From sequence record KP869106: a DNA stretch of 64,000 nucleotides; one strand, written 5' to 3'. The notes beneath the pieces are model-generated. The model was not told the DNA's origin and made no database searches. It worked only from the letters and a program-made list of their open reading frames with translations. Position 1 is the stretch's first letter. Each line of letters starts with the position of its first letter. This document shows, in pieces, positions 25,704 through 27,855 of the stretch. This DNA is from Escherichia coli O157 typing phage 8. A program made the position numbers and the translations under genes.

Positions 25704-26489
25704 ATGGGTATTGTAAAAATAATCAATGGTGATATCTTTGCCGCATTTGATAAAGGTAAGTTTGACATCATCGGTCACGGTTGCAACTGTATGAATTTAA
25801 TGGGTGCAGGTATCGCTGACAAGATTTCTAAACTTTACCCAAAAGCATATGAGACCGATACAGAAGTTTATCTATATGCAGGTGGTATAGGACACAAACC
25901 CTGTGAAAATTTACTGGGTAATTTCTCTGTAGCACGTTTAAAACAAGGTCGTATAGCTAACCTTTACACTCAGCTTAAGACTGGTAAAGATGCCCGATAC
26001 AGTGCTTTAGAGTCATCTTTGAAACAGCTTAACAGATACTGTGAAGTTAATCAGTTGAGGAAAGTTGGTTTACCTATGATTGGTGCAGGTATCGGTGGGT
26101 TGGACCCTCAAGCCGTCACAGTTATCATCAATCAGGTGATGAAGAGTGTAGATGTTTATCTATATGTCTATGAAGGAGAGATGTACCACAAGTTACGCTC
26201 AGGTTGGAATAACTACTGTGAACCAGAATACTTTGCAGGTGTAGTAACGTTCAAAGATGATACAGTTACCCTCTTCAGACGAAGAAAAGGTAAGATACAT
26301 CAAAGTAACCCTCCGGTTGAGAAGATGTCTCTAAGTAACGCTCTAGTTACCCACCTGTCGAAGAGCAATCACAGGATAGCCGTAACATTTGGCAGTGATG
26401 CAGATACATATATTTATGCAAGAACTGATGAGGATATCGAGACGGTCTTCTCTTCACCGGAAGTTACCTTCTTAGACGCAAAGAACTAA
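25704..26489 (+). CDS. macro-domain protein (ADP-ribose binding / ADP-ribosyl hydrolase-like)
   Basis: GDIF...DIIGHGCNCMNLMGAGIA and GLPMIGAGIGGL match macro-domain glycine-rich ADPR-binding loops; extra ~90 aa C-terminal extension. Confidence 0.6.
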   Translation: MGIVKIINGDIFAAFDKGKFDIIGHGCNCMNLMGAGIADKISKLYPKAYETDTEVYLYAGGIGHKPCENLLGNFSVARLKQGRIANLYTQLKTGKDARYSALESSLKQLNRYCEVNQLRKVGLPMIGAGIGGLDPQAVTVIINQVMKSVDVYLYVYEGEMYHKLRSGWNNYCEPEYFAGVVTFKDDTVTLFRRRKGKIHQSNPPVEKMSLSNALVTHLSKSNHRIAVTFGSDADTYIYARTDEDIETVFSSPEVTFLDAKN

Positions 26490-26559
26490 GAAACTCTGTA
26501 TAATATTCACAATAGACTAAGCCTTCCTTATCTGGTAAATTTTTCAGGTAAGGAGGGCT

Positions 26560-26760
26560 TTTTCATTTCAGGATTGTGCAGGTAGAGTTCTGTAGAGAAA
26601 TCTGTAGAGAGAATTTTGAACTCCAAAGAGAAAATTCATTTTCAAACTGTGCAGGTAATCTCCAAAGAGCTTTTTCATTTTCAAAAAGTGCACCCCGCTC
26701 AGGTCGGGCAAGAAAAATCATTTTAGAATTGTGCAGGTAGGTTTTTATGGAGAGCCATAC
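26560..26760. repeat. four spaced copies of a CATTTTCA...TGTGCAGGTA motif, followed by a polypyrimidine C-rich tract
   Basis: Direct repeats near 26574, 26650, 26690, 26732; CCCCTCTCCCCCTATTACCCCCTCTCTCCCC at about 26762-26792; gene-free. Confidence 0.45.
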
Positions 26761-26915
26761 CAACCCCTCTCCCCCTATTACCCCCTCTCTCCCCAAAAGT
26801 CAAGAGAAAAATTTGTAGCGGATTGAAAAATAATTCTTGATTTGTGTTCTGTTTTGTGGTAGTCGTGTGCGCACGTTTCATTACAGTTTTTCCAAAAATA
26901 TTTTTAAAATTTTTC

Positions 26916-26944
26916 TTGACTCTTTGAACGGGGTTATCTAGTAT
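26916..26944 (+). promoter_or_regulatory. sigma70-like promoter TTGACT-17-TAGTAT heading the early-gene array
   Basis: Consensus-like hexamers with 17 bp spacer upstream of type-A leader. Confidence 0.45.
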
Positions 26945-26950
26945 TTGCAT

Positions 26951-27007
26951 CAACGGGGAGGGAATGACCTTCCCCACTAAATAAAGTCCTAAACTGGAGA
27001 TTCAAAA
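26951..27007 (+). promoter_or_regulatory. type-A conserved leader: hairpin GGGGAGGG-AATGA-CCTTCCCC, then RBS GGAG
   Basis: Near-identical 55-60 nt cassette repeated 7 times before small ORFs. Confidence 0.5.
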
Positions 27008-27388
27008 ATGGCATACCGTGCACCTAAATTCATCAACAAAGACAACTTTCGCAACGCACTGGAGAAGTCACTTGATGAGAATTTTAAAGGTAACGTTATT
27101 GTTGTTCACTCGTTCAATTTCAAGTATGATATTAACGGGAATAAAATCAACCATTACACGGCGACAATGCTAGATGGTACTCTTTCAAGTGAAAAAGCCA
27201 TTTTACATGCACTTGCTGGACGTGGTAAAAACCTGATAAGATGCGATAAGAGACGTTATCAGGGTGGCGCATATGGTTACGATGATGCTGTTTATCATCT
27301 TGAAAATATGGGCTATCAAGTAGAAAAAGCTGGAGTGTCTCAAATAATCGGTAGTGATGGTTATGTAACAATCTTCAAAATTAACTGA
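27008..27388 (+). CDS. early-array small protein (unknown function)
   Basis: ORF directly behind type-A cassette. Confidence 0.5.
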   Translation: MAYRAPKFINKDNFRNALEKSLDENFKGNVIVVHSFNFKYDINGNKINHYTATMLDGTLSSEKAILHALAGRGKNLIRCDKRRYQGGAYGYDDAVYHLENMGYQVEKAGVSQIIGSDGYVTIFKIN

Positions 27389-27406
27389 TAAAGTACTTTA
27401 CAAGGG

Positions 27407-27476
27407 GCTTATAGTTCGATAAAGTAAGCCCCAGATAAAGAGCTTTACCACTAAATCCTAAATTGGAGATTCAAAA
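27407..27476 (+). promoter_or_regulatory. type-B cassette: TTTACA, palindrome GGGGCTTA-N13-TAAGCCCC with -10-like hexamer inside, then RBS
   Basis: Cassette repeated 5 times (27407, 27776, 28846, 29642, 30913). Confidence 0.45.
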
Positions 27477-27767
27477 ATGGCTACTATCAAAAACGTTGTA
27501 ATTCCTGTAAAAACTCGTGATGACGCTCGCATCATGGCGAAAAAGTTAGGCGGGAAAGTGGTTGACAACGGAAAACAATCTGCTGTAAGATGGGGTGTGA
27601 AGGCTGATAAACAGTTGAAGTTAAAAAATTCACCAATAAATCTTTTTACATGTGTAAACACTATCGGAAAGACAAATGTATACACGAAAAAGGCATATAT
27701 TAGACGCGTAGCCTTAACATCTCCAATTCGTACAATGAGAGGTTATGCAAAGCTGAAAATTAGCTGA
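27477..27767 (+). CDS. early-array small protein (unknown function)
   Basis: ORF behind type-B cassette. Confidence 0.5.
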   Translation: MATIKNVVIPVKTRDDARIMAKKLGGKVVDNGKQSAVRWGVKADKQLKLKNSPINLFTCVNTIGKTNVYTKKAYIRRVALTSPIRTMRGYAKLKIS

Positions 27768-27775
27768 TAAAGTAC

Positions 27776-27855
27776 TTTACAAGGGGCTTAAAAGTTGGTA
27801 TCTTAAGCCCCAGATAAAGAGCTTTACCACTCAATCCTAAACTGGAGATTCAAAA
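27776..27855 (+). promoter_or_regulatory. type-B cassette
   Basis: TTTACA + GGGGCTTA...TAAGCCCC palindrome + conserved RBS region. Confidence 0.45.

Follow-up and report, generated by a model that had tools for sequence, protein, structure and literature searches.

Introduction

Replication origins of the iteron type, among them lambda ori with its four O-protein sites and the origins of plasmids P1, F and R6K, are built of three to five direct repeats of about 20 bp, all in one orientation and located at a unique non-coding site, with a bipartite core extending over about one helical turn and with transcription directed toward or through the site. The T7 primary origin, as well as ori(uvsY) and ori(34) of T4, are organized in another way, as a promoter with a downstream opening region, and have neither an initiator protein nor an iteron array. 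T4-type phages also carry promoter-stem-loop modules, and DR_1 to DR_9, the repeated promoter/hairpin modules annotated between the early genes of Escherichia phage wV8, are similar to them in spirit. A different kind of repeat region is the injection stop signal of phage T5 (FST repeat region 3), described by Davison (bioRxiv 10.1101/866236). Placed at 7.9% of the genome, it is a conserved untranslated region that bounds a block of early genes read by the host RNA polymerase and is better conserved than the neighbouring ORFs; it lies within a 10-kb terminal repeat and contains nested inverted repeats, palindromes and paired consensus DnaA boxes.

Here we describe a non-coding array of repeats which shares some properties with each of these systems. 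It was found in a stretch of 64,000 nucleotides from Escherichia coli O157 typing phage 8 (sequence record KP869106), called the window below, whose coordinates are used throughout. Window positions 26300-27100 match wV8 (EU877232/NC_012749; Felixounavirus, Ounavirinae) at 100%, the window coordinate at the array locus being the EU877232 coordinate plus 18850, and the locus is referred to as that of wV8. Of the features of an iteron-type origin, the array has the three or more direct repeats of about 17-22 bp at a unique locus, with four repeats in wV8 and three or four in its relatives. In contrast to the known examples, the repeats of Felix-O1-like phages stand farther apart and at unequal distances (37-75 bp), the 17 proteins scanned include no recognizable cognate initiator encoded nearby, and no AT-rich unwinding element stands out beside the repeats. 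What wV8 has in common with T7 and T4 is a T7-like primase-helicase and polymerase, together with a gene-less promoter-like site directed into a non-coding region; the differences from those origins are the low strength of this promoter in wV8, an AT-rich element that does not stand out, and the presence of an iteron-like array. Similarly to the T5 signal, the array is a conserved untranslated repeat region about 8% from an inferred physical end, bounding a block of early genes, and its version in Erwinia phages contains DnaA-box-like repeats, whereas the repeats of wV8 are direct, lie outside a terminal repeat of only 0.6 kb and do not fit the DnaA box. As to the DR modules, the segment 26795-26944 next to the array consists of three copies of an upstream element plus -35 module, in both orientations, while the four TCATTT...GTGCA repeats are not part of such modules and occur nowhere else in the genome.

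The array lies between a terminator and the first early promoter

The gene upstream of the array, gene 12 (25704-26489), encodes a product with a Pfam Macro domain at residues 25-141 and belongs to an rII/nucleotide-metabolism/macro operon. Its stop codon is separated by 426 nt from the -35 hexamer at which the first early promoter begins, and the next ATG follows after 518 nt; this gap, predicted to be free of genes, is indeed gene-free by comparative criteria. Two features are annotated in it in EU877232, a terminator and a 54-aa ‘gene 13’ with a GTG start (window 26576-26740). On the other side, the whole stretch from the array to the terminal repeat is occupied by small genes with strong sigma-70 promoters. 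The features of the locus are as follows.

26519-26565, plus strand: intrinsic terminator of the upstream operon (macro-domain gene), a 17-pair stem with 7 G-C pairs and a T-rich tail
26562-26584, plus strand: repeat R1, TTCATTTCAGGATTGTGCAGGTA, present in all 24 intact aligned relatives
26635-26657, plus strand: repeat R2, TTCATTTTCAAACTGTGCAGGTA, with CTCCAAAGAG directly 5'; missing in ECML-1, finno and L084
26674-26692, plus strand: repeat R3, TTCATTTTCAAAAAGTGCA, then cccc, with CTCCAAAGAG directly 5' and a degenerate 3' end
26717-26739, plus strand: repeat R4, ATCATTTTAGAATTGTGCAGGTA
26764-26794, no strand assigned: C-rich polypyrimidine tract (allele A), CCCCTCTCCCCCTATTACCCCCTCTCTCCCC, exact
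26775-26803, minus strand: leftward promoter-like site, -35 TTGACT at 26803-26798, 17-nt spacer, -10 TAATAG at 26780-26775
26795-26860, no strand assigned: right-hand block beginning AAAAGTCAAGAGAAAAATTTGTAGCGGATTGAAAAATAATTCTTGA, with two back-to-back -35-like hexamers 34 bp apart
26837-26865, plus strand: decayed rightward promoter copy, TTGATT-17-TAGTCG
26916-26944, plus strand: first strong early sigma-70 promoter, TTGACT-17-TAGTAT, which serves gp14
27008-27388, plus strand: gene 14 (gp14), the downstream edge of the gap

The terminator is the one annotated in EU877232, its hairpin is kept in the aligned relatives, and its T-tract merges directly with repeat R1.

Four direct repeats with a bipartite core occupy the gap

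All four repeats have the same orientation and share the core TCATTT-N8-GTGCA, whose two parts are about one helical turn apart, with centres separated by about 13-14 bp (roughly 1.3 turns). Inverted repeats at the array are weak, and the array itself is one of direct repeats. The original prediction of four copies spaced by roughly 40-70 nt agrees with what we measured: the four copies are where they were expected, with start-to-start distances of 73, 39 and 43 nt. The wording of the motif needs correction, as CATTTTCA is exact in R2 and R3 only and the fourth TGTGCAGGTA is degenerate, R3 reading AAGTGCAcccc at this position. Even so, TGTGCAGGTA occurs exactly three times against 0.15 expected, a number that none of 100 shuffles reached. 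The flaw of R3 is a private 2-nt deletion of wV8 just 3' of GTGCA, found in none of the 24 other aligned sequences; 23 of these read GTGCAGA or GTGCATA at this point, while L085 is substituted to GTGCAGT. When the window and the rest of the wV8 genome were searched with the 21-mer (up to 3 mismatches) and with a relaxed 19-mer, the array locus was the sole match, which answers the call for a genome-wide motif search that accompanied the prediction.

The wV8 repeat was compared by eye with the consensus sites of IHF, CRP, Fis, Lrp and DnaA, and none fits. With respect to the DnaA box TTWTNCACA, the wV8 repeats read ACCTGCACA, which is three mismatches away, and the wV8 array is not a DnaA-box cluster if 9-mers with at most one mismatch are required. 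The repeats of the Erwinia phages read CTATGCACA or TTATGCACG, a single mismatch from this box, and their ends, TGTGCATAG and CGTGCATAA, are likewise one mismatch from TGTGNAWAA. The repeats were also considered as promoters and rejected, as the plus strand shows no usable hexamers by eye and good minus-strand hexamers occur in one Erwinia phage only.

The repeats are conserved in four genera of Ounavirinae

By blastn, the array interval was matched in 287 phage records, including Suspvirus and Mooglevirus, with the match in Erwinia Kolesnikvirus covering the repeat part only. Three or four copies of the motif are found at the same position in Felixounavirus, Suspvirus, Mooglevirus and Erwinia Kolesnikvirus, and the layout of macro-gene terminator, repeats and first early promoter is preserved in all representative loci and in 27 Ounavirinae contigs obtained from a motif scan of viral contigs. 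The prediction had made its case depend in part on the presence of the repeats in related phages, and they were found in every relative examined. Within a genus, the distance from one repeat start to the next hardly varies: 73/39/45 nt in Felixounavirus, 75/41/45 nt in Suspvirus and Mooglevirus, and 37/37/39 nt in Kolesnikvirus. The copy number is not strictly fixed, given the natural three-copy variants without R2 (ECML-1, finno and L084).

The consensus unit of 101 repeat copies anchored on GTGCA is W4-5-TCATTT-YMRAWTY-GTGCA-KRK, in which T.ATTT and GTGCA are essentially invariant. Among the 21 enteric sequences, 70% of the core columns (TCATTT plus GTGCA) are invariant versus 26% of those in the inter-repeat spacers, and when the Erwinia phages are added the values are 52% versus 9%. 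The array is also at least as similar between genera as the adjacent coding gene (identity of 0.75 vs 0.70 for SUSP1 and 0.74 vs 0.69 for Mordin), and in the Erwinia phages the core motif is retained amid flanking non-coding DNA of random identity (0.32-0.35). On the strength of these alignments we judge the repeats to be under purifying selection across the four genera. Few other non-coding elements of the subfamily are as well conserved as the array.

Neither the 72,556 plasmids nor the 5,426 E. coli genomes searched yielded a homologue of the array, and a search for distant relatives by way of the macro-domain protein returned only Ounavirinae and two unrelated contigs.

The C-rich tract is an allele

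The polypyrimidine tract between R4 and the right-hand block is the most conspicuous part of the locus in terms of composition: its 25 C in 40 nt is the maximum of the window (the next best value being 17), and it is contained in a G-free run of 44 nt. Its minus strand reads GGGG-N5-GGGGG-N5-GGGGG-N3-GGGG, a predicted G-quadruplex motif and the sole one on either strand of the 64 kb when four runs of at least three G with loops of up to 7 nt are demanded. The tract is also an imperfect mirror repeat.

In 9 of the 21 enteric aligned sequences the tract is replaced by an unrelated segment of about 65 nt, GGTGGGTGCAGGTGGGGATGTCGCCATTTCTCACAAGGCTACCACATCTGGAAAT, which we call allele B and which is present in 140 phage records. 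Allele A was seen in Felixounavirus (wV8, Felix O1), Suspvirus (SUSP1) and Mooglevirus (Mordin), and in a shortened form in the Erwinia phages; its sequence drifts while its pyrimidine-only composition stays, and it is probably the ancestral form, as far as its distribution indicates. The G-quadruplex motif is not conserved among the relatives, since only three G-runs are left in the Erwinia phages and the 140 records carry allele B. Because so many related genomes have an unrelated segment instead, the tract is clearly dispensable, an optional accessory of one allele, and a G-quadruplex, triplex or rut-like role cannot be general to the element. The tract is thus present exactly as quoted in the prediction (26764-26794), but it is not an obligatory part of the element.

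Promoter-like modules flank the repeats on the right

The block at 26795-26860 is well conserved, with 70% of its columns invariant in the 21 enteric sequences and with 74-81% identity to FelixO1, SUSP1 and Mordin. Each of its two back-to-back hexamers, AGTCAA at 26798-26803 (TTGACT on the minus strand) and TTGATT at 26837-26842, is preceded by the A/T-rich element that is also found upstream of the true early promoter at 26916-26944; this promoter itself is located just upstream of DR_6 of EU877232 (the gp14 5' leader, window 26951-27003).

The leftward hexamer belongs to a promoter-like site preceded by the upstream element of the early promoters, AAATTTTTCT. Scored with a simple home-made position-weight matrix, by which real early promoters reach 11.6-13.3, this site obtains 6.1 in wV8 and 6.1-6.3 across wV8 and the other allele-A genomes (TTGACT-17-TAATAG/TAAGAG), as compared with 12.2 in allele B (TTGACT-17-TGgTAGCCT) and 12.2 for the equivalent site of the Erwinia phages (TTGACG-18-TATACT), both within the range of the real promoters. 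If sigma-70 promoters are defined by 16-18 nt spacing and a -10 with A at position 2 and T at position 6, wV8 falls outside by a G at the last -10 position, while the sites of allele B and of the Erwinia phages fall inside; a separate promoter prediction did not list the leftward site in wV8 either. A gene-less promoter pointing into the repeats thus looks ancestral from the comparison of these sequences, and in wV8 itself it is doubtful.

The rightward hexamer belongs to a decayed promoter copy (26837-26865), and at its position the Erwinia phages have a real early promoter, 35 bp from the leftward partner. The back-to-back geometry of the leftward site and the rightward -35 is thereby kept at 34-35 bp.

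AT content is 71% in 26795-26915 and 88% in 26885-26916, an AT-richness owed to the upstream element that is usual for the early promoters. No exceptional DNA-unwinding element was found beside the array: about 6000 positions of the window rank above the best 100 bp in 26480-27000, and DNA stability reaches its minimum for the window at 33.5-34.3 kb, adjoining the terminal repeat.

The array is neither a structured RNA nor a genome terminus

A structured non-coding RNA had been put forward as the alternative to binding sites, and we found no signs of it. No Rfam family matched near threshold, the best hits being far below the gathering scores; the folding energy of the region was not better than that of shuffled sequences (z = 0.06 for the plus strand and 0.53 for the minus strand); and the RNAalifold consensus of 20 homologues is nearly empty, with -8.6 kcal/mol over 305 columns, a covariation term of -0.6 and compensatory changes in 2 of 32 pairs. 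A minus-strand terminator at CCCGctcaggtCGGG after R3 was rejected as well: there are two alleles of the spacer at this place among the aligned sequences, and because of this the small CCCG...CGGG hairpin is not conserved, being lost in the alternative allele.

Terminal repeats of 608 bp and 581 bp have been reported for the felixounaviruses UAB_Phi87 (PMC4837284) and Pr103Blw (PMC8303462), respectively. The latter, annotated at both ends of its record, maps to window 33201-33803 (88% identity), and several other phage records begin exactly at this repeat. For UAB_Phi87, a single SpeI fragment is compatible with the Bal31-sensitive fragments, and it is located away from the array locus; this fragment allows two placements of the ends, of which the more plausible one coincides with 33.2-33.8 kb, and the start of the record is an arbitrary assembly start with a 542-bp overlap, not a physical end. 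The array begins 7.24 kb, or about 8% of the genome, before the inferred right physical end, and it lies 6.46 kb upstream of the terminal repeat. With the terminal repeat of about 600 bp mapping some 6.5 kb away, the array is not a genome terminus or pac site.

The array probably binds a protein and may be a replication origin

Because the repeats are unique in the genome, oriented and bipartite, with constrained cores, kept spacing and no signal of coding or of RNA structure, we consider it likely that the repeats are the sites at which a sequence-specific DNA-binding protein binds. This was also one of the two suggestions of the original prediction, and the single-orientation core, the genome-unique motif, the conservation in four genera and the stronger constraint on core than on spacers are all consistent with it.

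What such a protein would do is a further question, for which we offer one mechanism tentatively, as a fair way short of probable: the array could be an iteron array acting as a replication origin or replication-control region of Felix-O1-like phages. Its four same-orientation bipartite sites would lie just downstream of the leftward promoter module, which is back-to-back with the rightward early promoters. A phage-encoded protein (a host protein being less likely) would oligomerise on the repeats, and divergent transcription from the adjacent promoters would provide negative supercoiling and/or RNA to aid opening or priming. The replisome served would be a T7-type primase-helicase with its polymerase, for which no initiator is recognisable, and the C-rich/G-quadruplex tract would be an optional accessory of one allele outside the core of the mechanism.

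According to its annotation, wV8 encodes a T7-like primase/helicase, a DNA polymerase and a ligase, and its genome contains other origin candidates too, e.g. the place where the DNA polymerase gene and gp105 diverge. By Pfam, no initiator domain was found in 17 proteins scanned; the ten gene products flanking the array yielded the macro domain only, with no initiator-like or DNA-binding domain, and the sole recognisable regulator among the scanned proteins is the XRE-type HTH protein encoded by the distant gp092. On one hand, an origin is favoured because iterons adjoin a divergent promoter pair in a phage with a T7-type primase-helicase and polymerase but without a recognisable initiator. On the other hand, the lack of a prominent unwinding element, the failure to find an initiator gene and the weak leftward promoter of wV8 speak against it, as do the three mismatches of the wV8 repeats from a DnaA box, the natural three-copy variants and the other origin candidates. 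An origin is the reading that we favour for the array, though as less likely than not.

A regulator bound to the four sites might instead, together with the terminator, separate the upstream operon from the block of early promoters, making the locus a transcriptional control region or insulator. Read-through might be blocked, transcription from the leftward promoter might meet a roadblock at the bound sites, or these might form a loop with the divergent promoter pair; in allele A, read-through transcripts would in addition acquire a Rho loading (rut) site from the tract, which is C-rich and G-poor on the plus strand. The array occupies precisely the interval that separates a strong terminator from the beginning of the early-promoter series, the conserved block carries back-to-back -35 modules, a G-free C-rich run of 44 nt is typical of rut sites, and with gp092 the phage encodes at least one XRE-type HTH protein. 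But 170-350 bp separate the sites from the early promoter downstream of them, only this one of many near-identical early promoters has such sites, a dimeric XRE repressor does not usually bind direct repeats, and the rut role cannot be general since the C-rich tract is missing from 140 genomes. We regard this reading as rather unlikely, though one to be kept in mind.

Less probable still is an unstructured leftward RNA starting at about 26768 and containing four copies of ACCUGCACA-N2-UUGAAAAUGA, which would be a sponge that sequesters an RNA-binding protein, or would oppose the macro-gene operon by antisense action or interference. It would account for a strong predicted promoter without an ORF behind it in allele-B and Erwinia phages (12.2 in both), for the invariance of the allele-B -10 and initial transcribed sequence in 8 of 9 loci (L031 having TGtTAGCCT) and for the absence of an intrinsic terminator in the leftward direction, as read from the sequence. 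Nevertheless, wV8 and all other allele-A genomes are devoid of the key final T of the -10 (TAATAG/TAAGAG), there is neither a thermodynamic or covariation signal nor an Rfam family, and two short conserved blocks one helical turn apart suit recognition of DNA more than of RNA.

The repeats could also be a non-functional relic, composed of decayed tandem duplications of terminator-tail and promoter modules that only frequent recombination at a mosaic boundary has kept similar. The locus is a mosaic junction, as identity to Felix O1 falls from 0.97 in the repeats to 0.41 in gp14, the tract and the spacer after R3 have two alleles each, several metagenomic contigs break here, and the right-hand block is visibly made of copies of the early-promoter upstream module. 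Survival of the core motif in the Erwinia phages despite flanks of random-level identity, the far higher conservation of core positions than of spacers and the spacing kept within genera are hard to reconcile with this, and we find a relic quite improbable.

Very improbable, by analogy with T5, is a boundary of DNA entry, with the array as the inner edge of a first-entering terminal segment of about 8% and the incoming DNA held at the repeats, e.g. by a membrane-associated DNA-binding protein, during expression of the early genes. The distance of the array start from the inferred right end (7.24 kb), the small genes with strong sigma-70 promoters in between, the similar position and DnaA boxes of the T5 signal, and the Erwinia-phage repeats with their one mismatch from the DnaA box are all in line with this idea. 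Against it, two-step transfer is not reported in the Felix-O1-like phage literature examined, the wV8 repeats are three mismatches from the DnaA box, they are direct where T5 has nested inverted repeats and palindromes, the 0.6-kb terminal repeat does not include the array, and the 8% position may be a coincidence. If true, it would mean stepwise genome entry in a second, unrelated phage group.

Small protein-coding genes are hardly credible, whether ‘gene 13’ of wV8 or the ORFs that the records of Felix O1, Mordin and UAB_Phi87 place on the minus strand. Both strands offer ORFs of 36-105 aa, and several records annotate them, but their frame, extent and start codon vary between genomes, their starts are mostly TTG or GTG with no Shine-Dalgarno at those inspected by eye, indels of 2 and 4 nt inside them break the reading frame, and in the Erwinia pair the substitutions are distributed 4/6/7 over the positions of the codon, 8 codons having changed non-synonymously and 5 synonymously. 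With frames varying, indels interrupting and no third-position excess, these ORFs are probably spurious.

Significance

The Felix O1 genome paper states that temporal regulation of this phage is not known. The array is not described in the Felix O1, wV8 and UAB_Phi87 literature examined, we found no paper that pairs ‘Ounavirinae’ with ‘iteron’, and a term search of the part of the Bas63 knock-out study available to us gave nothing on the array locus. Judged by its sequence, the array is a new, well-conserved example of a familiar type of element, with a putative function. Two practical corrections follow from its analysis: the eye-catching C-rich/G-quadruplex tract turned out to be an allele and not a requirement, and several of the ‘genes’ annotated in the gap are probably spurious.

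Felix O1 and its relatives are widely used for typing, detection and biocontrol of Salmonella and E. coli. For the biology of these phages, the array offers a precise, mutable target for finding their origin or a master regulator, and in the engineering of Felix-O1-like phages it may be a site to spare, or one to exploit.

Allelic variation beside and within the repeat array
The segment between R4, the last of the four same-orientation repeats (R1-R4), and the conserved block to its right exists as two sharply distinct alleles, as became apparent when the window (26746-26812) was compared with homologous loci of related phages (L011, L012, L065 and others). Allele A is C-rich and carries a G-quadruplex motif on the minus strand. 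Allele B, found in 140 records, holds an additional GTGCAGGT half-repeat, and a strong leftward promoter with an extended -10 element is predicted within it. The spacer 3' of R3 likewise occurs as two alleles, and these assort independently of the allele A/B segment. In ECML-1 and finno, a three-copy array is found together with a different 3' end of the macro-domain gene (25704-26489 in the window). The C-terminal approximately 120 residues of the macro-domain protein (about 142-261) had no match in Pfam.

One metagenomic sample yielded five Felixounavirus contigs (loci L056/L109, the contig end of IMGVR_UViG_3300045988_004180, and L106, L107, L113 and L103) that all stop no more than a few hundred bases from the macro-domain gene; in one of them unrelated GC-rich DNA takes over after R3. 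The likeliest explanation is that the sampled phage population was mixed and that the assembly broke, or became chimeric, at a mosaic boundary.

Repeats in Erwinia phages
A four-repeat array is also present in Erwinia phage phiEa21-4 (L006, 1468-1640), with further Erwinia counterparts at L048 and L060. The repeats of these phages are near-tandem, 37-39 nt apart, and their ends (TGTGCATAG/CGTGCATAA) differ from a DnaA box by one mismatch. One repeat unit doubles as a strong promoter-like sequence on the minus strand (TTGCCA-17-TAAAAT); this promoter reading is not conserved in L048.

Small ORFs in the gap and the early gene block
Small genes have been annotated across the repeat-array gap:
wV8 gene 13, window 26576-26740
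Felix O1 ORF31-34
Mordin_126
UAB_Phi87 Phi87_48-50
Their frame, start and length vary between genomes, and on this comparison all of them are probably spurious.

Throughout the early block (26916-32200), modules consisting of a promoter, a hairpin and a ribosome-binding site are repeated between small genes, for example at:
26949-27007
28498-28577
29362-29433
30585-30668
31484-31557
32083-32153
The wV8 record labels these modules DR_1 to DR_9. Some relatives, which match the sequence in two pieces, have an additional unit of about 485 bp directly after 26915.

The window-to-record offset is +18850 at the repeat-array locus and +18851 at the window's far end, a one-base difference; positions 503-512 are ten consecutive N.

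The terminal repeat and the inferred genome ends
The segment 33201-33803 is the direct terminal repeat of about 600 bp and so gives the inferred physical genome ends. A 581-bp repeat annotated in Pr103Blw aligns to it with 88% identity, and the records of several relatives open at precisely this place. The wV8 record leaves this segment unannotated. It begins with GCCCCC and is densely filled with short repeats of the CTTGTTAA/CTGTTAAGA type; the plus- and minus-strand gene blocks converge there and GC skew flips. DNA stability in the window is lowest at 33.5-34.3 kb, inside and just past the repeat.
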